In this document: positions 2,661-59,744 of the stretch, piece by piece | Position numbering within the stretch: position 1 is the stretch's first letter | Layout: each line of letters begins with the position of its first letter | NCBI GenBank assembly: GCA_964631565.1 | Contig: CAZVYJ010000011.1 | Span: 182 to 64,181, forward strand | Source: an uncultured Planctomycetaceae bacterium | Lineage (GTDB): Bacteria > Planctomycetota > Phycisphaerae > SM23-33 | Direction: 5' to 3' | DNA: 64,000 nt | The notes under the pieces: generated by a model | The model's database searches: none | What the model was told of the DNA's origin: nothing | Seen by the model: the letters and a program-made list of their open reading frames with translations, nothing else | Program-made: the position numbers and the translations under genes

Positions 2661-3716
2661 ATGGCATTATCCGGAAAAGCCAAATATCAGAATGTGGTGT
2701 CCTCACTGAGGGACGGGATAGTTAAAGGCCTGTATCGTCCCGGGCATCAGCTGCCGACCCGTCCTGAGATGGTGGAGAAATTCGGCGTCAGCATTGCGAC
2801 GGTGCAGCGTGCGCTGGATACCTTATCTGACGATGGTTTCATCCGTGCTCGTGCCGGGTCTGGCACGTTTGTTGTTGATCGTCCGCCGCATCTCTGCAAT
2901 TACGCCATATCGATGCCCAAGTCGGGCCAGTGGTCCTGCTTCTTTGATTCGCTCAGAGGGGCCATGAAATGCGTGGGGCAGGACAAAGATATCAATTTCC
3001 GTGAATATATTACTTCGCGTGATGTGGGCGACAGGCAGGGTATAAGCGATCTTTACTCGGATGTGTTCGACAAGAAGCTTGCCGGAATCATTATAACCGG
3101 TGACCCGGCCGACCTGTACGGCACGGGTATTATGGAGAATAAGGCCGTTCCCTGCGTGGCGAACGTATCTACATTTGATGTGCCGTGCCCGAAGGTGTAC
3201 ACGCGTCTGGAAGCTTTTCTGGAGCGGGCGGTGGAATTTCTCGTGTCCCGCGGCCGACGGCGCATCGCGCACCTGTTCATGGACTTCGAAGCGCACCACG
3301 TCGCCGATTTTGAAGACCGCATGAGGCGCATGAATGTTGAAGTCCGGCCTTACTGGATACAGTCGGTCGCCATGTACGCGTTGTTCCGTTCCGCGACGAA
3401 TGTTGTCAATCTGCTGGCGCAGCTTGACGGCGACAAAAAGCCCGACGCCCTGATCATCCATGACGACAACCTTATCGAGCATGCCGTTGCGGGTCTGCTG
3501 GCGGCCGGTGTACGGGTGCCGGAAGAAATGGAAATCGTTGCGATGTTCAACTATCCGTCGCGCACCCACTCTTTGCTGCCCATGACGCGTCTGGGCCTCG
3601 ACATGCGCGAATCGCTGAAAAAAAGCGTCGAAATCCTGGACAAAATGCGCAATGGCGAGCCTGTCCCGGATGGAATCGAACTGAAAGTGAAGTTCGAACA
3701 CGAAATGGAGAAATAA
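2661..3716 (+). CDS. GntR/LacI-type regulator, paralog 2
   Basis: LPTRPEMVEKFGVSIATVQRALDTL wHTH; effector domain very similar to paralog 1. Confidence 0.9.
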   Translation: MALSGKAKYQNVVSSLRDGIVKGLYRPGHQLPTRPEMVEKFGVSIATVQRALDTLSDDGFIRARAGSGTFVVDRPPHLCNYAISMPKSGQWSCFFDSLRGAMKCVGQDKDINFREYITSRDVGDRQGISDLYSDVFDKKLAGIIITGDPADLYGTGIMENKAVPCVANVSTFDVPCPKVYTRLEAFLERAVEFLVSRGRRRIAHLFMDFEAHHVADFEDRMRRMNVEVRPYWIQSVAMYALFRSATNVVNLLAQLDGDKKPDALIIHDDNLIEHAVAGLLAAGVRVPEEMEIVAMFNYPSRTHSLLPMTRLGLDMRESLKKSVEILDKMRNGEPVPDGIELKVKFEHEMEK

Positions 3717-3793
3717 GAGTCGCCGTGACTCTTGGAGGCATTAAACAGGTTTATTTGACTTATTTTTTCCGGAGATTGAGAAAGGAGACTTTT

Positions 3794-4549
3794 ATGAGCT
3801 TGTATTTAAGAAGATTTCTACTGGCAGGCGTTCTGCTAGCCGTGGCGATGCCGGCAGCCGCGGACACACTGGTGCTGGGCGATCCGGCGTGGGCAGGCAC
3901 TCCTGCCGGCGCCATCGACGGCAAAATCGCTGATGCGTGCATGTGGGTCGGATGGGGTGAAGGCATGGGCCTTGGCACCGGCGTTCAGTTTGAAAGCGGC
4001 CCGTCTTATGTCAAGCACGTGCTTTGGTACTTCGACTTGGCCGGTGCGGGTATGCCGATCGGGCCGAACACAGTGATTGACAGCGTGCAGTTCAACGTTT
4101 CCGATGCCGGCGGCGGGCATGTGGCCCAGCCGGAAATCAATCTGTACGCACTGACGAAGGCCTGGACGGAAGCAGGCGAAACCTGGTACACCACGGGAAC
4201 CGGAACGGACTGGTCGACTCCCGGCGTAGGCGCAGGCGACATCATCGAGTCCTCCAAGGTGTCGATTACCACCATTGGAGCTGCCGATGCATGGGCCCGT
4301 TTCGACATTCCGGGCTTCGATTCGCTGATCCAGGCGTGGGCCAACGGCTCGATTACCAATTACGGTGCATTGATGGTGTATGCTGCTGAAGAAGGAGACG
4401 TGACAATGAACATGTGCTCCTCGCAGTATGCCTCGCACGTCAAGCCGTACCTGGTGGTTGAATATCATGTAGTGCCCGAGCCGGCGACTATGAGCCTTCT
4501 GGGCCTTGGCGGCCTGGGTATGCTGATCCGTCGCAAAAGGAGTATATAA
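3794..4549 (+). CDS. secreted PEP-CTERM protein, DNRLRE-like domain
   Basis: ATG 3794 after AGGAG; signal peptide almost identical to the 1617 gene; LWYFDL..VIDSVQF, LYALTKAWTE; VPEPATMSLLGLGGLGMLIRRKR. Confidence 0.85.
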   Translation: MSLYLRRFLLAGVLLAVAMPAAADTLVLGDPAWAGTPAGAIDGKIADACMWVGWGEGMGLGTGVQFESGPSYVKHVLWYFDLAGAGMPIGPNTVIDSVQFNVSDAGGGHVAQPEINLYALTKAWTEAGETWYTTGTGTDWSTPGVGAGDIIESSKVSITTIGAADAWARFDIPGFDSLIQAWANGSITNYGALMVYAAEEGDVTMNMCSSQYASHVKPYLVVEYHVVPEPATMSLLGLGGLGMLIRRKRSI

Positions 4550-4587
4550 GACGACCCCAACGCAGATTCGCAGTAAAAAAGCTTTGC

Positions 4588-4612
4588 GCTCAGAAGAAAG
4601 GTTCCTCTGAGC
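4588..4612 (+). ncRNA. conserved 3'-UTR bulged hairpin motif, copy B
   Basis: GCTCAGAAGAAAGGTTCCTCTGAGC. Confidence 0.55.
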
Positions 4613-4619
4613 AACCGAG

Positions 4620-4650
4620 GTGGCCGTCCCTCAGGGACGGCCGCTTTTTT
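4620..4650 (+). terminator. intrinsic terminator
   Basis: GTGGCCGTCCC-TCA-GGGACGGCCGC-TTTTTT. Confidence 0.85.
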
Positions 4651-4868
4651 ATACCACTATTACAGCATCGGGGTCGATATTCCAATCACCATGGATTTAC
4701 TATTATACAGCTTAAATCAAAAGAGAAATCCGTTTTTTGCAATTCAGTCGAACCCGGTTAACGATAAGAAGGTTTAATCAGCTAATATCAGTCTGCTGAA
4801 GTATTCGTGTGAATCCGGCGGTTCACGTGACGGGAACCCATATTTGAAAAACAAAAGGGAGCGACACG

Positions 4869-6863
4869 ATGAATCGAATCGCGGGAATTCAAGCCGGGAA
4901 GTTCAGACGGGTATCGTGGTATGCTGCCGCAGTCATAATTTTGATAATGGAAAGCGTGGTTATGGCAGGCGACTTGACGCTCAAGTACGATTCCAGCAAA
5001 TATCCTGAATTGAAAATGGGATATAACGACCTTAACGGTGACGGCAAGGCCGATACGCTGATTACCAGATGGAACGACAAAATTATCGCCTTTATCAGCG
5101 ACGGCGGGCAACTGCCGTGGAAGGCGGAGGACGAAAAGCAGGACTGGAACGCCTACTTCAACAAGGCGTACAACGTCGGCCAGGACCCGCCGGTGACATG
5201 GAACCCTGTAAGGGCCAGGTGGGGCGACTATACGATTCTGGTGGACCGCGACGGCGACGGCAGATTTGATTCCATCGGCGACTGGTGCTACAAGACATTC
5301 GACCTCAACAAAGACGGCTCGCCCGAGGCCGAGTACTATCATCTTTTCCCGGGGCACTACAGTAACAAGTTTCACATCAATTTCAGCGGCGAACGGGACA
5401 TGTCGTGGCTGGACTTCGGCGGCTTCTGCTACTGCCCTGACGAGCAGCGATACGTCAACGGCAGCCAGTACATCATGAACGTTCACGGCAACGGAATGTT
5501 CCTCAACAGCTACGCCCGGAATACACAGTGCGCGTGGGAAAATCCCATCGCATGGTATGACTTCGATTTCGACGGCCGAACCAACATGGTCATGCGGGCC
5601 GCGGATACCTTCTACGAGGACGGCAAGGATCACGTTTCCTACAGCGGCTGCCTGAGCGAGCTCGAGCTGGCGTTCGAGCTGAATTCGAACACCAGCGAGA
5701 AACGGTGGCACTCCCTGGACATGCAGTTGACGTTCTTCAACTACGACAGGGGCAAGGGGCTGGATTACAAATCCTTCACCGATGCGCTGGCCTTCATGAC
5801 GGGTCTTAAGGGTTCGGAGTTTCTCTCCGAGAATATGGCCGAGGCGAGGCTGCAGACCGTCCGCAGATATCTTCCTTACATGGACGGCTACAAAATCGGG
5901 ATGGATTTCGACGGCTGGGCCGGCGTATGGCTGCTGTTCGATGAAGACGATGACGACAACCGCTGGGAAGAAATGTTCTCCAGGCACGAGCCGGCCGATT
6001 GGCACGGCTACGCAGACCAAATCGGCGACCGCACCGAGATCGACAGGGACTACGGCGGCAAGGGCAAGCTTTACATCGCCAAATTTGACGGCCGCATTCA
6101 CCTGTTCCATGCGGAATTCGCCGTATGGGATGTCGATTGTCTCGCCATGTATAAGGGTGCGTGCGACAGGGGCGCTACCCCGGAGGGGCCGAACCCGCCG
6201 GCCGGTATTCGATATCCGCGCGTGAGATATTCCGACACCAACGGCAACGGTTTTATCGACAGGATTGAATATATGACCGTCGAATACGGCAAGGAAGGCG
6301 AAACCGAAAAAATCGACCGGGTCGTTTCGCTCCTGGATTACGCGGACGAGAAGAACCCCAAACCGGATGTGTGCGAACTGTTCGATCCTCGCGTGGACAC
6401 GAAAGTAACCGGCTGGACCGTCGCCAAATGGGACGGGAAGCCCTTCACGGCGAAGGATTTCAAGGGTACGCCCGTCAAGGCCGGCTTCGACAGGGTATAC
6501 CAGTTTTACGGCCGGGTCTGCGACGGCATGTGGAGCGACGCCGAAAAACTCTATAAAACCGCCAGGGACCTGGGCCTGAACCGTTCAGAGGACCTGGACA
6601 AGGAACTGAAAGACACGTACACCAAAGATGAACTCGCCGCGCTGAAAGTGCTGGACATACCCAAAGGGTACTCGCGGCACCTTTCCGGCAAGACCAGGCG
6701 GGAAAAATACAACAACGGCTACTGGCTTAAGGAAAAAGTTTTCGCGGACATCCTTGAGTATTCCTCGCTCGACAATCGCACGCTGGAGAAGTATTTTTAC
6801 ACCGGCAGGATCGATGAACTCTGCGAATACGTCAGGGCCAACTACAAGCCGCAGCAGAAATAA
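4869..6863 (+). CDS. hypothetical, probably exported protein with several DxDxDG calcium-binding-like motifs
   Basis: 664 aa ORF with GGGAG SD, signal-like N-terminus, motifs DLNGDGKAD, DRDGDGRFD, DLNKDGSPE, DFDFDGRTN, DTNGNGFID. Confidence 0.75.
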   Translation: MNRIAGIQAGKFRRVSWYAAAVIILIMESVVMAGDLTLKYDSSKYPELKMGYNDLNGDGKADTLITRWNDKIIAFISDGGQLPWKAEDEKQDWNAYFNKAYNVGQDPPVTWNPVRARWGDYTILVDRDGDGRFDSIGDWCYKTFDLNKDGSPEAEYYHLFPGHYSNKFHINFSGERDMSWLDFGGFCYCPDEQRYVNGSQYIMNVHGNGMFLNSYARNTQCAWENPIAWYDFDFDGRTNMVMRAADTFYEDGKDHVSYSGCLSELELAFELNSNTSEKRWHSLDMQLTFFNYDRGKGLDYKSFTDALAFMTGLKGSEFLSENMAEARLQTVRRYLPYMDGYKIGMDFDGWAGVWLLFDEDDDDNRWEEMFSRHEPADWHGYADQIGDRTEIDRDYGGKGKLYIAKFDGRIHLFHAEFAVWDVDCLAMYKGACDRGATPEGPNPPAGIRYPRVRYSDTNGNGFIDRIEYMTVEYGKEGETEKIDRVVSLLDYADEKNPKPDVCELFDPRVDTKVTGWTVAKWDGKPFTAKDFKGTPVKAGFDRVYQFYGRVCDGMWSDAEKLYKTARDLGLNRSEDLDKELKDTYTKDELAALKVLDIPKGYSRHLSGKTRREKYNNGYWLKEKVFADILEYSSLDNRTLEKYFYTGRIDELCEYVRANYKPQQK

Positions 6864-6910
6864 ATACGGGCAGTCCACAGGGCGGCGCGGCACATATCGA
6901 GGAGAATAAA

Positions 6911-12635: not shown

Positions 12636-12800
12636 TGAAGACCACGGGTTTACCCGTGGATGAATGCCGCCGACAACGGCAGTTGCCGTTGTCGGCTCCT
12701 GAATCCCGGTGTGTGTGAGTAAAATGCACATACGCCCGGATTCAGGTCAGCTGCGACTGCAGCTGTGAAGGTAAGTACCCCGGCTTTAGCCGGGGGAATC
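12636..12800. mobile_element. putative non-autonomous IS200/IS605-type (palindrome-associated) element
   Basis: Five consecutive hairpins; the terminal ones CCACGGGT-TT-ACCCGTGG and CCCCGGCT-TT-AGCCGGGG resemble IS200/IS605 subterminal palindromes; no ORF; ends approximate. Confidence 0.5.
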
Positions 12801-19199: not shown

Positions 19200-20036
19200 A
19201 TGGTTATTATTGAGCCGCATATTCATATGTACTCCCGCACGACGGACGATTACCAGGCGATGTACGCCGCCGGCATCCGGGCGTGCGTCGAGCCGTCGTT
19301 CTGGCTGGGCACGAATCGCAGATACGCGGGCACGTTCTGGGATTACTTCCAGCTCATCCTCGAGTTCGAGACCGTCCGCGCGAAGCGGTTCGGCATCGAC
19401 CATTTCGTCGCGGTTTCGGTGAATCCCAAGGAGGCCGAGGACACCGGCCTGGTTGACGAGGTAATCGCAGGCATGGACCAGTACATTGACCACCCGCGAT
19501 GCGTCGCCATCGGCGAAATCGGCTTCAACAACATAACGCCCAACGAGGAGCGCGCGTTCGTCAAGCAGCTTGAAATCGCCCGCAAGCGCAGGCTACCGGT
19601 CATCGTCCACACGCCGCACGTCGATAAGCTGCGCGGCACGCTGCGGATTATCGACATCCTCCGCGAACAGAAGATGGACAGCCCGCAGGTCATCATCGAC
19701 CACAACACCGAGGACACGATAGCCGCCTCGATGAAAACGCAGTGCTTCGTCGGCATGACGGTTTACCCGATATCCAAGCTTACGCCGCAGCGCGTCTCGG
19801 CGATGGTGAAGCAGTACGGTCCCGAGCGTGTCATCGTCAACGGCTCGGCCGACTGGGGAATTTCCGATCCGCTCAGTCTGCCGAAGGTCGTCGAGTTTAT
19901 GGGCCGCGACGGCCACGACGCCGAAACTGTTCAGCGGCTGGTCTTCGGCAACGCGATGGCGTTCTACAGCCAGACGCCCAAGTGGAAGCCGAACTTCGAC
20001 CTGAAACCCGTCGATCCCCGGGAGTTTCAACGGTAG
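19200..20036 (+). CDS. eboB: TatD-like metal-dependent hydrolase (EboB-like)
   Basis: EPHIHMYSRTTDDYQAM..EPSFWLG, AIGEIG, VHTPH, SADWG motifs; ebo context. Confidence 0.85.
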   Translation: MVIIEPHIHMYSRTTDDYQAMYAAGIRACVEPSFWLGTNRRYAGTFWDYFQLILEFETVRAKRFGIDHFVAVSVNPKEAEDTGLVDEVIAGMDQYIDHPRCVAIGEIGFNNITPNEERAFVKQLEIARKRRLPVIVHTPHVDKLRGTLRIIDILREQKMDSPQVIIDHNTEDTIAASMKTQCFVGMTVYPISKLTPQRVSAMVKQYGPERVIVNGSADWGISDPLSLPKVVEFMGRDGHDAETVQRLVFGNAMAFYSQTPKWKPNFDLKPVDPREFQR

Positions 20037-20041
20037 CGGCC

Positions 20042-20956
20042 GTGGATACCCCTCGCACAAACCGGCTGTTGAGCAATAGCTGGCTGCAGCTTCTTCGCGT
20101 GCCGAACCTGCTGACGGTTCCGGGCGACCCGCTGGCCGGTGGGCTGCTTGCGATGGCGGCCGGCGCTAGCGGGGCGGGATCGCTTCAGTTTGCGGCGGCG
20201 GCCGGCGCATCGCTGCTGCTGTATTCCGGCGGGCTTATTCAGAACGATTACTTCGATTTGGCCGAGGACCGCATCGAGCGGCCAAATCGGCCTTTGCCAT
20301 CCGGCAGGGTAAATCCCAAAGTTGCAATCTTCGTTGCGTTCGCGCTGGCGGTCGCAGGCGTGTGCCTTGCAGGGGCCGCTTCGGTCGCCGGCGGCGCAGC
20401 GGCTGCGGCTGTGCTTGTCGTAATGACGCTTTACAACGCCGGCCTCAAACGTGTCCGAATCGTCGGGCCGATTTTCATGGGCGTATGTCGCGGCCTGAGC
20501 CTGATGATAGGCGCGGGCCTGTTCGGCTGGGCTGCGATGTGCGAATTGCCGGTAATAATCTCTGCGGCCGGCCTGGCTGTGTTCATCGCCGCGGTTACCG
20601 CAATCGCATCGCGCGAGACGCAGACGATCCGCGTCGGCCTGCTTCGCTGGCTGCCGGCTGCCGTGATTGCGGCGTGGCTGGCCGGGCTGACCGTACTGCT
20701 GCCAAATGCGGCGTGGATTTCCGCGACGATGGCCTCTATTGCCGTCCTGTGGGTTGTATACTGTGTGCTGCCGCTTAAGGCCTCCCCCGCGCCGGCTGTC
20801 GTACAGAAGACAATCGGCCGGCTCATCGGCGGGCTGCTGCCGATTCAGGCAGCCGTCGCCGTGCACGCGATTCCGGCGGGCCTGTTCGTCGCGGCGGCGC
20901 TTGTGCTGGCCTGGCCGGTTGCCAGACTATTGGCGAAACGATTCTACGCGAGCTGA
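20042..20956 (+). CDS. eboC: UbiA family prenyltransferase (EboC-like)
   Basis: LQLLRVPNLLTVPGD, NDYFDLAEDRIERPNRPLPSG; GTG start inferred. Confidence 0.85.
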   Translation: MDTPRTNRLLSNSWLQLLRVPNLLTVPGDPLAGGLLAMAAGASGAGSLQFAAAAGASLLLYSGGLIQNDYFDLAEDRIERPNRPLPSGRVNPKVAIFVAFALAVAGVCLAGAASVAGGAAAAAVLVVMTLYNAGLKRVRIVGPIFMGVCRGLSLMIGAGLFGWAAMCELPVIISAAGLAVFIAAVTAIASRETQTIRVGLLRWLPAAVIAAWLAGLTVLLPNAAWISATMASIAVLWVVYCVLPLKASPAPAVVQKTIGRLIGGLLPIQAAVAVHAIPAGLFVAAALVLAWPVARLLAKRFYAS

Positions 20957-20975
20957 TTACGAGGACACTTGTACA

Positions 20976-22262
20976 TTGAAAAAACTTCTGGTCATCCAGG
21001 TTGCCGCTCTGGGCTACAGGCTGCTTGAAGAAAACGGCAAGCTTGTCTGGGAGGATATGGAATTCCGCCCGGCCGCCAGCGTGCTGCCGGCCGTCACGTG
21101 CAGCGTGCAGGCGAGCTTCCGCACGGCGACTCAGCCGGGGCGGCACGGCATGGTGGCCAACGGGCTTTTCTTCCGCCAGCTCGGCAGGACCGCGTTCTGG
21201 GAGCAGTCGTCGCGGCTGGTGGAAGGGCCGCGGATATGGGAGCAGTTCCGCGCCGCCGGCGGAAAAGTCGGGATGATGTTCTGGCAGCAGTCCATGGGCG
21301 AGGATGTCGACCTGCTCCTGACGCCGGCGCCGATTCACAAGCATCACGGCGGAATGATACAGGACTGCTGCTGCCGCCCGGCCGGCCTTTACAAAAAGCT
21401 CTGCGACGCGGTCGGAAGCAGCTTCAGGCTGCGGCACTACTGGGGGCCGCTCGCATCGGCGAAGGCCGGCGACTGGATAGCAGCCGCCACTGAAGCGGTC
21501 CTGCGCGACCGCGAGACGGCGCCGCATCTTCTGCTGACATACCTGCCGAGCCTCGATTACGACCTCCAGCGTTTCGGCCCGCATCACGAAAAGAGCCGCG
21601 CCTCGCTCAGTCAAACTCTTCAGCAGCTCGCGCGGATGAAGGCAGCCGCACGCGACGAAGGCTATGACGTGCTGATATTCGGCGACTACGCGATAGACGA
21701 TGTCAGCGAGGCGGTCTTCCCGAACGTCGCGCTGCTGGAAGCCGGCCTGATGACCGCACGCGACGTTCGTGGTATGCTGTATGCCGACCTGCACGCGAGC
21801 AGGGCGTTTGCGGTGGTCGACCATCAGGTCGCCAACGTGTACGTTCGCGACGTGTCCGATGTGCGGAAGGTGCGCCAGACGCTGGAGCAGCTTGACGGCG
21901 TCGCCGAGGTGCTGGACCGCAGCGAGCAGACTGCCCGCGGCCTGGGCCACGCCAACAGCGGCGAGCTTCTGCTGCTTGCCGGGCCTGACTGCTGGCTGGC
22001 GTATCCGTGGTGGCGAGAAAACAGGCGCAGGCCGGACTACGCGACGCACGTGGACATCCACGCCAAGCCCGGCTACGACCCGTGCGAGCTGTTTTTCGGC
22101 TGGCCGCCGCCGTCGGTCAGTATGAACGTGGAAAAAATCCGTGGTTCACACGGTTTGAATGGCCCCGGCCGGGAGGCGGCCTGGGCGACGACGCTGCCCG
22201 CCGATGCCTGCACGATTGTGGAGCTGGCTGAAGCGGTCAAGCGATATCTGGAACAGACGTGA
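20976..22262 (+). CDS. eboF: alkaline phosphatase / nucleotide pyrophosphatase family protein (EboF-like)
   Basis: LPAVTCSVQASFRT, HGMVANG, YLPSLDYDLQRFGP, AFAVVDHQVANVY, IRGSHG; TTG start after GAGGA. Confidence 0.85.
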   Translation: MKKLLVIQVAALGYRLLEENGKLVWEDMEFRPAASVLPAVTCSVQASFRTATQPGRHGMVANGLFFRQLGRTAFWEQSSRLVEGPRIWEQFRAAGGKVGMMFWQQSMGEDVDLLLTPAPIHKHHGGMIQDCCCRPAGLYKKLCDAVGSSFRLRHYWGPLASAKAGDWIAAATEAVLRDRETAPHLLLTYLPSLDYDLQRFGPHHEKSRASLSQTLQQLARMKAAARDEGYDVLIFGDYAIDDVSEAVFPNVALLEAGLMTARDVRGMLYADLHASRAFAVVDHQVANVYVRDVSDVRKVRQTLEQLDGVAEVLDRSEQTARGLGHANSGELLLLAGPDCWLAYPWWRENRRRPDYATHVDIHAKPGYDPCELFFGWPPPSVSMNVEKIRGSHGLNGPGREAAWATTLPADACTIVELAEAVKRYLEQT

Positions 22263-22266
22263 CGTT

Positions 22267-23526
22267 ATGACAGACGATTCTTCGAAGCGAGACGGCGGGC
22301 GATTCCCGGCCGACATGTTCATGCAGCATATATCCGTGCCGTTCGAGTACCCGGTCTGCTTTACGCGGCGGATATTCGACGCGTCTAATCCTCTGCTGGC
22401 CGACGTAATCGACCGCCTGAAGGAAGACCGCCGCCATCGCGCGGTGGTGTATATCGACGCCGGACTGGCCGCCGCAAATCCGCAGCTTTCCGAAGACATC
22501 AAGGAATATTTCCACGCCCGCGGCCACGAGAAAAAGCTCGAGATTGCCGCTCCGCCGGTCGTGGTTCCCGGCGGCGAGCAGGCCAAGAACGACTGGGCGC
22601 CGGTCCGAGAAATTCTCTGGACCATCGGCAATCTGCACCTGGACCGCAAGAGTTTCGTCATCGCCGTCGGCGGCGGCAGCATGCTGGACATGGTGGGCTT
22701 CGCGGCGTCGATTGTGCATCGCGGGCTGCGGATTATCCGCGTGCCCTCGACGACGCTCGCGCAGGACGACGCCGGCCTGGGCGTGAAAACCGGCATGAAC
22801 GAGCACGGCGCGAAAAACTTCGTCGGCACGATGGCGCCGCCGTTCGCCGTGCTGAACGACTTCTCGCTGCTTTCGACGCTCTCGCTGAAAGACTGGGTGG
22901 GCGGGGTGGCCGAGGCGTTCAAGGTCGCCATTATAAAGGATTCGGAATTTTTCGATTTCCTCTGCGAAAAAGCCGCAGCCTTCCGCGACCGCCGGGCGGA
23001 ACCGATGGAGCAGCTTATACGCCGCTGCGCCATGCTGCACCTGCGCCACATAAGGGACGGCGGCGATCCGTTCGAGTTCGGCTCGGCAAGGCCGCTTGAC
23101 TTCGGCCACTGGGCGGCCCACAAGCTGGAAGTGATGTCCGACTATTCGATGGGTCACGGGCAGGCGGTAGCCGTCGGCATCGCGGTCGATTCGTATTACG
23201 CGATGAAGCAGGGGCTCATCAGCCCGGCCGATTTCGACCGCATCATCACCGGGCTGCTCGAAAGCGGCCTGCCGGTCTGGTGCGAGCAGCTTTCCATGCG
23301 CGGAGGCGACGGCGAGCTTGTCGTGCTGGACGGGCTGGCGCAGTTCCGCGAGCATCTCGGCGGCAGCCTGTGCGTAACGCTGCCGGACGGCATCGGAAAC
23401 AAAATCGAGGTGCACCACGTCGACACCGATATCGTCGAGCAGGCCGTCGAGTATCTGAAGTCCAAAACGAAGGCGGCCGCGAAAACCGGCGCGGGTTCCA
23501 ACGCGAAAAACCGCGGAAAGGACTGA
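22267..23526 (+). CDS. eboD: 3-dehydroquinate-synthase-like sugar phosphate cyclase (EboD-like)
   Basis: VPGGEQAKN, GGGSMLDMVGFAA, PSTTLAQDDAGLGVK, RPLDFGHWAAHKLE. Confidence 0.85.
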   Translation: MTDDSSKRDGGRFPADMFMQHISVPFEYPVCFTRRIFDASNPLLADVIDRLKEDRRHRAVVYIDAGLAAANPQLSEDIKEYFHARGHEKKLEIAAPPVVVPGGEQAKNDWAPVREILWTIGNLHLDRKSFVIAVGGGSMLDMVGFAASIVHRGLRIIRVPSTTLAQDDAGLGVKTGMNEHGAKNFVGTMAPPFAVLNDFSLLSTLSLKDWVGGVAEAFKVAIIKDSEFFDFLCEKAAAFRDRRAEPMEQLIRRCAMLHLRHIRDGGDPFEFGSARPLDFGHWAAHKLEVMSDYSMGHGQAVAVGIAVDSYYAMKQGLISPADFDRIITGLLESGLPVWCEQLSMRGGDGELVVLDGLAQFREHLGGSLCVTLPDGIGNKIEVHHVDTDIVEQAVEYLKSKTKAAAKTGAGSNAKNRGKD

Positions 23527-23528
23527 CC

Positions 23529-24779
23529 GTGCTCATCCAGGCCAGCCCGCCGCTGCACTTGACCTACTGCCTGAATATCCATCCGGGCGAAAGCTGGCCG
23601 GAGGCATTCGACGCCATCAAGAACCACGCACTGCGCATTCGCGACATGCTCGCACGTGGCGGGGCGTTCGGCCTGGGGCTTCGTCTCAGCGCGCAGGCGG
23701 CTGCACATCTGGCCGACTCGCGTACGCTGGCGGAATTCCGCGATTTTCTGAAACGAGAGAACCTTTACGTATTCACGATTAACGGTTTTCCATATGGGCA
23801 GTTTCACGCCGCAGCCGTCAAGGAAAACGTCTACCGCCCCGACTGGGAAGACCGCCGCCGCCGCGATTACACCATTCAGCTTGCCGACATACTCGCCGCC
23901 ATTCTGCCGGAAGGCGTGCCGGGCAGCATCTCGACCGTGCCGTGCTCGTACAAGGCGTGGATAGATTCGACGCGTCAGGTGGCGGCGATGGCGGCAGCGC
24001 TGGCTGGCGCCGCGGCGCACCTCGCCGAGATAAAAAACAGGACCGGTAGCGATATCTGCCTCGCACTTGAGCCCGAACCGGACTGCTTCCTCGCCAAGAC
24101 CGCCGACGTGCTGGCGTTTTTCGCCGGGCCTCTGCGCGAGCGAGGCGGGCAGGAATGCATCCGCCAGCATATCGGCGTCTGCGTCGACACGGCCCACTGC
24201 GCGGTCGAGTTTGAAAGCCCGGCCGACAGCATTAGAAAACTTCAGCAGGCTGGCATACGCATCGCCAAGGTGCAGCTAAGCGCAGCACTGCGGGCGGCCG
24301 CGACGGAAGAATCGCTGCGGCGGCTGGGCGAGTTCTGCGACGAGGTTTATCTGCATCAGGTCAAAATCCGCGGCCGCGGCGGGGCGGTGCGGTCGTTCCG
24401 CGACCTGCCCGACGCGCTGGCGTTATATCAGTGCTCAAATGGCGGGTGGCCCGTACGGGTTGCCCCAGAAGAGCGAACACGGCTTGCGAGCAAGCCGTGG
24501 CACCCTCAAATCAGGTCTGACAGAGCACCGGCGGACGGCGGCGAGATTCGCGTGCATTTCCACGTGCCGCTGTTCTGGGAACCGACCGGCCCGGCCGGTG
24601 CGGTAGGCTCGACTGCGGACCTGCTGGACGACGATTTCTTCAGCCTGCTGCGGGCAGGCGCGAGCGGCAATCTGGAGATTGAAACCTACACGTTCGACGT
24701 GCTGCCGGCCGACATCCGCTCAGCCGACGTCGCCGAGTCTATCGCGGCCGAGTACCGCTGGGTTCTCAACCAGTTGTAA
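23529..24779 (+). CDS. eboE: EboE family TIM-barrel metabolite traffic protein with a 34 aa insertion
   Basis: LTYCLNIHPGESW, YVFTINGFPYGQFH, VKENVYRPDW, ALEPEPDC, RVHFHVPLF, LEIETYT. Confidence 0.9.
   Translation: MLIQASPPLHLTYCLNIHPGESWPEAFDAIKNHALRIRDMLARGGAFGLGLRLSAQAAAHLADSRTLAEFRDFLKRENLYVFTINGFPYGQFHAAAVKENVYRPDWEDRRRRDYTIQLADILAAILPEGVPGSISTVPCSYKAWIDSTRQVAAMAAALAGAAAHLAEIKNRTGSDICLALEPEPDCFLAKTADVLAFFAGPLRERGGQECIRQHIGVCVDTAHCAVEFESPADSIRKLQQAGIRIAKVQLSAALRAAATEESLRRLGEFCDEVYLHQVKIRGRGGAVRSFRDLPDALALYQCSNGGWPVRVAPEERTRLASKPWHPQIRSDRAPADGGEIRVHFHVPLFWEPTGPAGAVGSTADLLDDDFFSLLRAGASGNLEIETYTFDVLPADIRSADVAESIAAEYRWVLNQL
24429..24530. repeat. 102 bp palindromic REP/MITE-like element inserted in frame in eboE
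   Basis: Terminal IR CAGTGCTC / GAGCACCG, internal CCCGTACGGG and CACGGCTTGC-GA-GCAAGCCGTG; length is a multiple of 3 and falls on codon boundaries. Confidence 0.6.
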
Positions 24780-25403
24780 CGCTTTAAATGGCTGCTTCGT
24801 GAGAAGCCTGGCCGGAAGGAAGCTTTTGATCACCGCCATCACCAGTATTATGAGAGCGATTGCCATCAATATTAATATGCCGACATTATTCAGACTTGTC
24901 GCCAGGTCCTCACTTTGATTCGACATCATGATGGCGAGTCTGGGCAGTTGAAAAACAATATGTATTGACATCGTAATGAATGCGGCCGGCGCCGGGCTTT
25001 TTCTCGCCCATAGGGCGAGGCCCGTGAAGGCCATAGCCAACATGCCTGTGCCTCCGGCGTTTATCAGGATAACCAGGACATATTTGGCGCCATCCTGCCC
25101 GTGTATATGGGAAAGCTCATTGAAAGCGAAAAAAAAGCTGACCAGTGAGCCTGTGGCCATCAGTATCGCGGCAGCCAGGATTATTTTAGAAACGGCGGAG
25201 GCTTTCTTCTGTTCACGTAGCTTCCTGGCCAGTTTTACGTTGATTTGCGAGGAGGTGGTTTCTGACGCCGTCGCAGCGGCGTCAAGCTCCTGGTCGGAAA
25301 TATCCGCCATGATCCCGCCGCACTTTTCGCAAAAGGCGGCGCTAAGCCTGTTTTCACTCCCGCAGTGCGGACAATTGACTGTTGGCATGCTTTTGCTCCC
25401 CAT
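24720..25403 (-). CDS. zinc-ribbon domain membrane protein, paralog A
   Basis: CPHC..CEKC followed by about four hydrophobic helices; 3' end overlaps eboE by 60 bp. Confidence 0.75.
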   Translation of the reverse strand: MGSKSMPTVNCPHCGSENRLSAAFCEKCGGIMADISDQELDAAATASETTSSQINVKLARKLREQKKASAVSKIILAAAILMATGSLVSFFFAFNELSHIHGQDGAKYVLVILINAGGTGMLAMAFTGLALWARKSPAPAAFITMSIHIVFQLPRLAIMMSNQSEDLATSLNNVGILILMAIALIILVMAVIKSFLPARLLTKQPFKALQLVENPAVLGRDRLGDVG

Positions 25404-25424
25404 AAAAAGTTTGCGGTTGCAGCT

Positions 25425-26024
25425 TCATCCGGCCGATTTTGGATCAGCGTCACCTTTGGATTGCCTTTGTCCTATGCTGCTGATTGCGACTGCCCATACC
25501 AAGACCATTAAAAGGACAATCGCCCAAAAATTTTCTCCACTACCTGTCTGTATTTCGGATTCTCTGGTCCATTTCCTGGCAATGACAATGAACCTGGCCA
25601 GTTGAAATACGGCTCCAATTATCAGTCCGCAGCATGAGGCGGCAAGCGGTTTTCTCCGAGCCCAGAAGGCCAGGCCTGTGAATGCGACGGCCAGGACGCC
25701 CATACCGCCGGCATCTGCAAGCAGAAACAATGCGTTCGCAACGTAATCGTTTTGAGTGGTTGTTTCTATATAGAAGCATTTGCTGGTAACAAGCAGGAAG
25801 TTTATAAGTGAAATTGCAATACATATTGCCGCAGCAGCCGCTAAGGCGCATGGCGCCGCGCCGCGTCTTTTTGCTATCCTTCGTTGTATCGTGCCGGGCA
25901 ACTCATCTGGCGCATATCGGAAGTCGGCACCGCAATTACTGCATACATCAACTTCAGCCGGGATTGGTTTGCCGCAATATGGACAGTCGAACTCTTCCGA
26001 TCCTGGCATTTTTGTGCTCCCCAT
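25425..26024 (-). CDS. zinc-ribbon domain membrane protein, paralog B
   Basis: CPYC..CSNC; shares GGxGxLAxAFTGLAxWARK with paralog A. Confidence 0.75.
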   Translation of the reverse strand: MGSTKMPGSEEFDCPYCGKPIPAEVDVCSNCGADFRYAPDELPGTIQRRIAKRRGAAPCALAAAAAICIAISLINFLLVTSKCFYIETTTQNDYVANALFLLADAGGMGVLAVAFTGLAFWARRKPLAASCCGLIIGAVFQLARFIVIARKWTRESEIQTGSGENFWAIVLLMVLVWAVAISSIGQRQSKGDADPKSAG

Positions 26025-59714: not shown

Positions 59715-59744
59715 AAAACCCGTCCCTAAGGGACGGGTTTTTTT
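59715..59744 (+). terminator. intrinsic terminator ending the alpha operon
   Basis: AAAACCCGTCCC-TAA-GGGACGGGTTTTTTT. Confidence 0.92.

Follow-up and report, generated by a model that had tools for sequence, protein, structure and literature searches.

A REP-like palindromic repeat in frame within the eboE gene of an uncultured planctomycete

An element inside eboE and the site without it

We analysed a stretch of 64,000 nucleotides from an uncultured Planctomycetaceae bacterium (contig CAZVYJ010000011.1; hereafter the window, with position 1 as its first letter) and, within it, a 102-nt palindromic element that lies in frame inside eboE, a gene of the ebo cluster. An original prediction, made from the DNA alone, had placed this element at 24429-24530 and had it add 34 residues to the protein. 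Its coordinates and translation both proved right, and the 8-bp terminal inverted repeats (matching at 7 of 8 positions), the palindrome CCCGTACGGG and the perfect 10-bp stem CACGGCTTGC/GCAAGCCGTG were all found where they had been placed. The parts are listed below in terms of two units of the repetitive extragenic palindromic (REP) type, together with the corresponding ends of L204 and L053, two related elements described in the next section.

23529..24779, plus strand: eboE coding sequence, intact, GTG start, 416 amino acids (NCBIfam NF035939, TIM_EboE)
24429..24530, plus strand: inserted palindromic element, 102 nt, a putative REP doublet with short terminal inverted repeats, encoding 34 amino acids in frame
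24429..24436, plus strand: left terminal inverted repeat CAGTGCTC, identical in L204, AGTGCTCCGTC in L053
24444..24449, plus strand: GGGTGG tag of the left REP unit, a tag that stands directly 5' of the hairpin in 52 of 122 listed family copies
24450..24459, plus strand: short left hairpin CCCGTACGGG, a 10-nt palindrome common to the window and L204
24460..24477, plus strand: spacer TTGCCCCAGAAGAGCGAA between the two REP units, beginning with TTGCC and ending with GAA as does the family spacer TTGCCGAATTCGCCCAGAA
24478..24499, plus strand: right REP hairpin CACGGCTTGC-GA-GCAAGCCGTG, with a perfect 10-bp stem and a 2-nt loop
24500..24505, plus strand: GCACCC tag of the right REP unit, the complement of GGGTGC
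24523..24530, plus strand: right terminal inverted repeat GAGCACCG, matching the left at 7 of 8 positions, GAGCACGG in L204 and GACGGAGCACT in L053

The tags GGGTGG and GCACCC face outward around the two stem-loops, and the imperfect terminal repeats stand outermost. The right hairpin, at 22 nt with a 10-bp stem, is a short, G+C-rich stem-loop of the kind by which REPs are recognised, and no occurrence of this 22-mer would be expected by chance in the 64-kb window. As RNA, the insert has a folding energy of -43.3 kcal/mol (z = -2.64, with 2 of 200 dinucleotide shuffles folding equally well), which taken alone is only moderately unusual. The left stem-loop of this copy is a shorter and different palindrome, and the tags are inverted relative to each other as a doublet layout predicts. 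Read in frame +0, the insert encodes the stop-free peptide QCSNGGWPVRVAPEERTRLASKPWHPQIRSDRAP; two of its six frames (+0 and +1) are open, and each of the other four holds a single stop.

The gene around the insert is intact. Its open reading frame (ORF) scores 411 bits against the TIM_EboE equivalog model (cutoff 250), in a match that is split in two, as would be expected with an insertion. The product is 50-66% identical to EboE homologues, with the best EboE proteins of the GTDB collection at only 50-53%, and it retains every invariant residue of our alignment A1. Downstream of the insert, the motifs RVHFHVPLF and EIETYTF remain in frame. Since all invariant alignment positions are kept and the frame is restored past the insert, with every conserved motif in place, we ruled out that eboE is a pseudogene. 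An intein or intron was also rejected, as no such features are present.

We next compared the site with that of EboE orthologues. An alignment of 28 EboE proteins has a gap of approximately 30 residues at the insert site in nearly all of them, as the original prediction had anticipated, and holds no homologous segment. P0002, the closest orthologue (66% identity), reads DLPEALADEQLQPGSELRVHFHVPLF at this position, and its DNA carries an empty site with well-conserved flanks on either side; both this empty site and the in-frame read-through of the window ORF can be read from the DNA. From DLP to RVHFH, 93 of the 120 best EboE homologues have a spacing of 16-20 amino acids compared to 49 in window EboE, so that the net gain amounts to roughly 30-32 amino acids, which fits an insert of 34 if the native loop was short. 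Removal of the 34 residues had been predicted to restore the usual EboE spacing; it leaves a 7-residue linker, short but inside the observed range.

An error of metagenome assembly, in which the assembler spliced a repeat into eboE, would offer another explanation for such a site. The window does appear to be metagenomic, the only contig recorded for its EboE protein being 66.9 kb long, and assemblers can be misled by short repeats. However, a misjoin at a repeat would usually connect unrelated flanks, whereas here the same gene continues in the same frame on both sides. Additionally, the insert measures exactly 102 nt with its terminal repeats intact, and the rest of the gene and operon is collinear with L197, the contig of P0002. 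We consider an assembly artefact very improbable.

Relatives of the element and a hairpin family in Planctomycetota

To find relatives of the whole element, we scanned metagenomes with the left half that is specific to the window, GGTGGCCCGTACGGGTTGCC. Six of the seven matches were unrelated coding sequence, and the seventh, L204, is the sole real relative. Of the 96 positions that align between it and the window element, 85 are identical, and the alignment has a single gap of 11 nt; the short left hairpin, the right hairpin, the two tags and the two terminal repeats are all present in L204 as well. A second element, L053, has a perfect 13-bp terminal repeat, CTAGTGCTCCGTC...GACGGAGCACTAG, of the same type as that of the window. 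The termini AGTGCTC...GAGCAC are common to all three elements. Their inverted repeats pair at 13 of 14 positions in L204 and at all 13 in L053, compared to 7 of 8 in the window. Because these terminal repeats are common to full-length relatives, the boundaries originally drawn for the element are essentially right. Weak similarity between the window and L204 also runs beyond the element's ends, making the right boundary uncertain by about 12 nt.

A profile built from these two members, the window element and L204, matches L053 over positions 2-111 of 112 (E = 1e-10) and matches further copies of the family almost end to end. Its match to the window itself (24430-24529) holds by construction.

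The right hairpin recurs far more widely. We searched the GTDB species-representative genomes (596 Gb) with the pattern CACGGCTTGCNNGCAAGCCGTG, which is the hairpin with its loop bases left free, and found it in at least 116 stretches, where about one would be expected by chance. Approximately 110 of the 116 stretches listed are Planctomycetota, and many of these carry the label Phycisphaerae or Phycisphaerales. Among the matches listed, five metagenome-assembled genomes (MAGs) of Planctomycetota hold about 22, 12, 12, 11 and 11 loci; these copy numbers are our own count from the list of loci, and the chance expectation is our own arithmetic. The hairpin CACGGCTTGCnnGCAAGCCGTG is abutted by GGGTG[GC] or its complement in 81 of 122 listed copies (before it in 52 and after it in 29). 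The family tag next to the stem is GTGG or GTGC, not GTAG, and is present in the window too.

Many copies in this family are doublets with the order GGGTGG, hairpin 1, TTGCCGAATTCGCCCAGAA, hairpin 2, CCACCC. They are bounded by 19-nt terminal inverted repeats, TTGCTCTGTTGAAAACATC, and the two 28-nt arms of the large-family doublets match at 26 of 28 positions. At the place of the window's short left hairpin, the large family has the longer CACGCTTTGC..GCAAAGCGTG; by comparison of the copies, CCCGTACGGG has replaced the 22-nt left REP stem-loop specifically in the subfamily of the window and L204. On sequence comparison, we place the window element in this family.

The outer parts of the family are variable. 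Across MAGs, the tagged hairpin core was seen inside at least four different outer terminal-repeat shells (TAGAGCAACTGGCGTCATTAAT..., TAAGAGCCTATCCGAATAACC..., TTGCTCTGTTGAAAACATC... and AGTGCTCCGT...), all four of which end in a GAGC-containing tip. Loci with such shells include L020, L033, L035, L056, L065, L068, L081, L097 and others in JAJRXX, L003, L009, L036, L055, L078 and others in JAJDCS, and L034, L058 and L072 in JAPLML.

The segment might instead have arisen by ordinary lineage-specific loop growth, through local duplication or slippage, and resemble a palindromic repeat by chance or convergence. Loop length does vary among EboE homologues, and some expansions are of low complexity, such as the Ala/Pro-rich one in the EboE loop of P0026. 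However, the window hairpin is an exact 22-nt match, tag included, to a repeat family with over 100 copies. The similarity to the extragenic L204 runs the full length of the element, both terminal repeats included, and the two-member profile spans nearly all of L053. Loop growth of this kind is highly unlikely to account for the insert.

We then considered where copies of the family lie relative to genes. The L204 element has a 214-aa ORF on one side and a lipoprotein-like ORF on the other, and the L053 element starts at the TAG stop of a gene. In 81 of the 122 listed copies, no ORF in any frame spans the hairpin by at least 60 amino acids on each side, and many of the long ORFs that do span family copies are spurious high-GC frames. 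We compared the eight longest spanning ORFs with Pfam. The hairpin falls outside the recognised domain in five (upstream of it in four, after it in one), and in three of the four upstream cases it immediately precedes what is likely to be a start or a signal peptide. One ORF has no Pfam match, and the remaining two, at L070 and L031, carry the hairpin inside a real gene. To judge from these positions, the usual location of the family is extragenic.

In L204 (700-830), the lipoprotein-like ORF has a probable start (...RFGCNGALVLLACALALGGCSS) that overlaps the element's right terminal repeat, and the element may provide the first codons of that ORF.

The two genic copies bear directly on the situation in eboE. 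In L070, a complete family doublet lies in frame in a 1140-aa AddB-like ORF (3491-6910, minus strand; hairpin at 5152), between the ADDB_N and PD-(D/E)XK domains, and the peptide that the repeat encodes, GGTGCLQPVFLQASKQHGLQASR, coincides exactly with a 23-residue gap in the orthologue P0121. The L031 copy is a single hairpin within an ORF for a PQQ-type beta-propeller. As both genes carry in-frame copies, the eboE case is not unique for this REP family. The AddB-like protein of L070 also contains a second REP-looking peptide, GGTGVSPVNDTGETPMPP, nearer its N-terminus, which is a candidate for a further copy.

Finally, one locus ties the family to a REP-associated tyrosine transposase (RAYT). 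L026 (482-1075), from the Planctomycetota MAG Dive96_bin3.198, is a REPtron, with a RAYT gene at 517-1023 on the minus strand and inverted tagged hairpins on both sides. The 169-aa RAYT ORF scores 94.7 bits against the NCBIfam model NF047646 REP_Tyr_transpos (cutoff 80) and matches Pfam Y1_Tnp. The hairpins, at 488 and 1048, have their tags directed outward and lie about 25 nt from the ends of the ORF. A RAYT gene flanked by inverted REPs is an arrangement that has been described previously (PMC3733652). By this arrangement, the association of the family with RAYT is established for the L026 genome, not for that of the window. Thus the further copies of the palindrome anticipated by the original prediction do exist, in at least 116 GTDB stretches and mostly outside genes, with a RAYT link at L026 and in-frame copies at L070 and L031.

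Probable origin of the insert and tolerance of the loop

These results support the view that a normally extragenic palindromic repeat, of the REP type or of the type of miniature inverted-repeat transposable elements (MITEs), was turned into coding sequence by in-frame insertion into eboE. More specifically, we think it probable that the 102-nt insert represents one copy of a palindromic repeat that is small and non-autonomous, resembling a REP doublet forming a hairpin (REPIN), with short terminal inverted repeats and belonging to a family of Planctomycetota that is associated with a RAYT in at least one genome.

A number of observations weigh against this interpretation. No second copy of the element was found in the 64-kb window, whether with a pattern allowing three mismatches, with blastn at word size 7 or with a hairpin scan, and a tblastn search of the window with the L026 RAYT returned nothing credible (best E-value 0.23). 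The collections of genomes, metagenomes and gene positions that we searched do not include the window's own genome, and a multi-copy status of the element in its own organism is a prediction from other genomes. The original prediction had held that an intergenic REP/MITE family of this very lineage had become coding; the family and its extragenic norm stand on the evidence of other genomes, and the part that concerns the organism's own genome has met with 64 kb free of a second copy. No direct repeat that could be a target-site duplication is present at the window flanks (GTTATAT on the left and GCGGACG on the right), nor at the flanks of L204 or L053. Outside the window, the short-left-hairpin subfamily was found only in L204, with no matches to either of two patterns in the GTDB representatives. 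The nhmmer profile of the large doublets aligns to the window at 24474-24517 only, which covers the right hairpin and tag, so that the case for homology over the whole length depends on L204, L053 and the subfamily profile. Lastly, translation of the insert and activity of the insert-bearing EboE are predictions from the gene sequence.

If the insert is a mobile repeat, we infer that a copy entered eboE once this lineage had separated from that of the nearest orthologue known, probably mobilised by a RAYT acting in trans. The gene would owe its survival to the insert's length of 3 x 34 nt, to the lack of a stop in the frame used and to the permissive nature of the loop that was struck, which leads in the TIM barrel from a helix into the RVHFHVP beta-strand. 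The resulting peptide would since have been carried as a neutral surface passenger.

To see where the added residues would lie in the protein, we built an AlphaFold2 model of window EboE from alignment A1. The model has a mean predicted local distance difference test score (pLDDT) of 86.3, which drops to 49-55 in the three 10-residue blocks spanning residues 301-330 and to 68 in 331-340. The insert is placed between the helix at 293-303 and the RVHFHVP strand at 339-346. A fold search with the model returned only generic xylose-isomerase-like TIM barrels, and a sequence search of the PDB with an EboE profile returned no solved relative. In (beta-alpha)8 barrels, the catalytic face is opposite to the one that bears the loops leading from a helix into the following strand, and for this reason the position of the insert argues for tolerance. 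The inserted peptide would thus form a surface loop away from the active site. The original prediction had raised modelling as a way to recognise such a loop; the model bears this out as far as a low-pLDDT helix-to-strand loop is concerned, and exposure at the surface is deduced from that placement.

A competing possibility is that the insert is functional. Its hairpin could act in mRNA or DNA (on stability, in translational pausing or as a still-active transposase substrate), or the 34-aa loop could have been co-opted, for example as a contact surface for the Ebo machinery. In line with this, the 10-bp stem is still perfect despite its coding location. The same loop is also expanded in about 17 of the 120 best EboE homologues by other, non-homologous segments, at least one of which, in P0003, is a different palindromic repeat at the same site. 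However, a recent insertion explains the perfect stem equally well, and the loop inserts of different EboE lineages are unrelated in sequence and length, so that tolerance fits better than a common function. Model confidence is low for the insert, and Rfam contains no family that matches within 24300-24660 at E ≤ 1. We consider a function for the insert unlikely; most probably, the 34 residues are disordered and are tolerated at the surface as a passenger, without being a functional addition. For EboE itself, this marks one loop as freely expandable, which should aid construct design and the reading of alignments.

It is doubtful that the EboE loop before the RVHFHVP strand is a true hotspot, independently struck by different palindromic repeat families in several lineages of the Planctomycetes-Verrucomicrobia-Chlamydiae (PVC) superphylum. 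If it were, either local DNA properties would draw insertion of the REP/RAYT type or a longer loop would be selected, and peptides encoded by REPs would supply the material from which loops evolve in an enzyme that is widely conserved but mechanistically obscure.

Two sets of repeats in other EboE genes came to our attention. In P0003 (61% identity; L198, 1835-1900), the palindromic repeat in frame at this loop reads GGGGACAGTCCCC-ATTTTCCGAAGCGGAAAAA-GGGGACAGTCCCC. At least 120 stretches of GTDB genomes contain its motif GGGGACAGTCCCCATTTTC, and hosts among the matches listed include Proteobacteria, Acidobacteriota, Nitrospirales, Omnitrophota, the candidate phyla radiation (CPR) and Planctomycetota, an unusually broad range for one repeat. 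In P0018 (L141, approximately 440-680), it is the first EboE loop, a different one from the window's, that carries an in-frame insert of 70-90 amino acids. Five REP-like hairpins, among them CACGGGCAtccTGCCCGTG, CGCGGGCGtctCGCCCGCG and CGCGGGCAagaTGCCCGCG, surround a Gln-rich centre in this insert, which reads ...GILPVS...GQDAHAT; inserts of the P0018 type are also present in P0012, P0032, P0038 and P0051.

Known systems, neighbouring genes and other palindromes

In-frame inserts of the REP type have been described in Rickettsia conorii, as Rickettsia palindromic elements (RPEs), and for GTAG/CGTC REPs of several phyla (Di Nocera et al., 2013; PMC3733652). Most of these intragenic cases are in Opitutus terrae and R. 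conorii, and those of the GTAG type are mostly in O. terrae, a member of the same PVC superphylum as Planctomycetota. More than half of the intragenic GTAG/CGTC inserts are dimers that encode 20-30 amino acids, many intragenic REPs are in DNA repair genes including recBCD, and most O. terrae GTAG-20 elements carry a GTGG variant of the tag (PMC3733652). The novelty claimed in the original prediction was accordingly overstated, as intragenic in-frame REPs are documented in several phyla; what differs is the host phylum, Planctomycetota, and the gene, eboE. A full-text literature search returned nothing specific on intragenic REPs in Planctomycetota.

The window's element and the GTAG/CGTC REPs are alike in being tagged, normally extragenic palindromes that lie in frame in genes for known proteins. 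The recBCD inserts have a counterpart in the AddB-like gene of the window's family, and a GTGG tag beside the stem is found both in O. terrae GTAG-20 and in the window. Unlike those REPs, the window's element has a planctomycete eboE as its host and a putative doublet enclosed by extra terminal inverted repeats, and its hairpin differs in sequence from those given in the main text of the earlier study (PMC3733652).

The eboE insert is one more case of this known phenomenon of intragenic REPs, or of RPE-like insertion, and reveals no new mechanism. The Rickettsia elements, which Ogata et al. are said to have reported in 2000, are reportedly about 100-150 nt long and lie in frame in conserved genes. 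In both cases, a conserved gene keeps its reading frame open despite a palindromic repeat inserted in frame, and the added peptide is presumed to be at the surface. RPEs, however, belong to an obligate intracellular alphaproteobacterium, whereas the window's family is linked to RAYT in a free-living phylum. Given this phylum and the RAYT-type hairpin, the insert is not expected to belong to the RPE families of Rickettsia.

REPINs and RAYT transposases are reportedly the subject of work by Nunvar et al. in 2010 and Bertels and Rainey in 2011. As in that system, the family has two inverted REP units with a short spacer, many mostly extragenic copies per genome and a RAYT gene with inverted REPs (L026). 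It departs from the system in that the window's left unit is a shorter, different hairpin and in its added outer terminal inverted repeats, which vary between lineages; the RAYT link, moreover, is shown only for a genome other than the window's.

Some bacterial MITEs have also been described as inserting into ORFs or becoming fused to them, with Nezha, Correia/NEMIS and ERIC as examples (PMC3733652). The window's element resembles them in its length class of about 100-150 nt, its terminal inverted repeats, its lack of coding capacity of its own and its occasional read-through into proteins. It differs in that no target-site duplication was seen and in its conserved core, which does not consist of transposase-binding ends but of a tagged REP hairpin. 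No parent insertion sequence sharing its ends came up in our searches, none of which was aimed at finding one.

In this setting, the eboE insert is a clear and datable case from Planctomycetota in which a selfish palindromic repeat has turned into protein sequence, with the empty site surviving in the nearest orthologue and extragenic full-length relatives at hand. It also draws attention to a phylum-wide hairpin family tied to a RAYT transposase. For annotation, odd strings such as RLASKPWHP, HGLQASR or TACKQAV in planctomycete proteins become recognisable as translated REPs.

Upstream of eboE, the window carries further ebo genes, identified by Pfam and NCBIfam matches:

19200-20036, plus strand: TatD-like ebo gene (start putative)
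ending at 20956, plus strand: UbiA-like ebo gene (end coordinate only)
ending at 22262, plus strand: phosphodiesterase-like ebo gene (end coordinate only)
ending at 23526, plus strand: 3-dehydroquinate-synthase-like (DHQ-synthase-like) ebo gene (end coordinate only)

Together these span 19200..23526 on the plus strand and are preceded by MATE and glmS. Their order is the arrangement of ebo clusters (PMC5133447, PMC6282210), and the ebo gene order is identical in the window and in L197, where eboE is free of the insert. On the other side of eboE, two paralogous ORFs for zinc-ribbon membrane proteins occupy 24720-26024 on the minus strand, tail to tail with eboE; the first of them (24720-25403) overlaps the final 60 nt of eboE as listed.

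Elsewhere in the window, the palindrome CGTCCCTNAGGGACG occurs four times (4625, 41279, 41527 and 59721), where 0.01 occurrences would be expected. T runs follow the copies at 4622-4642 and 59715-59741, giving these two a terminator-like appearance. A further region, at 12642-12795, contains three perfect hairpins within 155 nt (12642-12659, 12669-12696 and 12778-12795).

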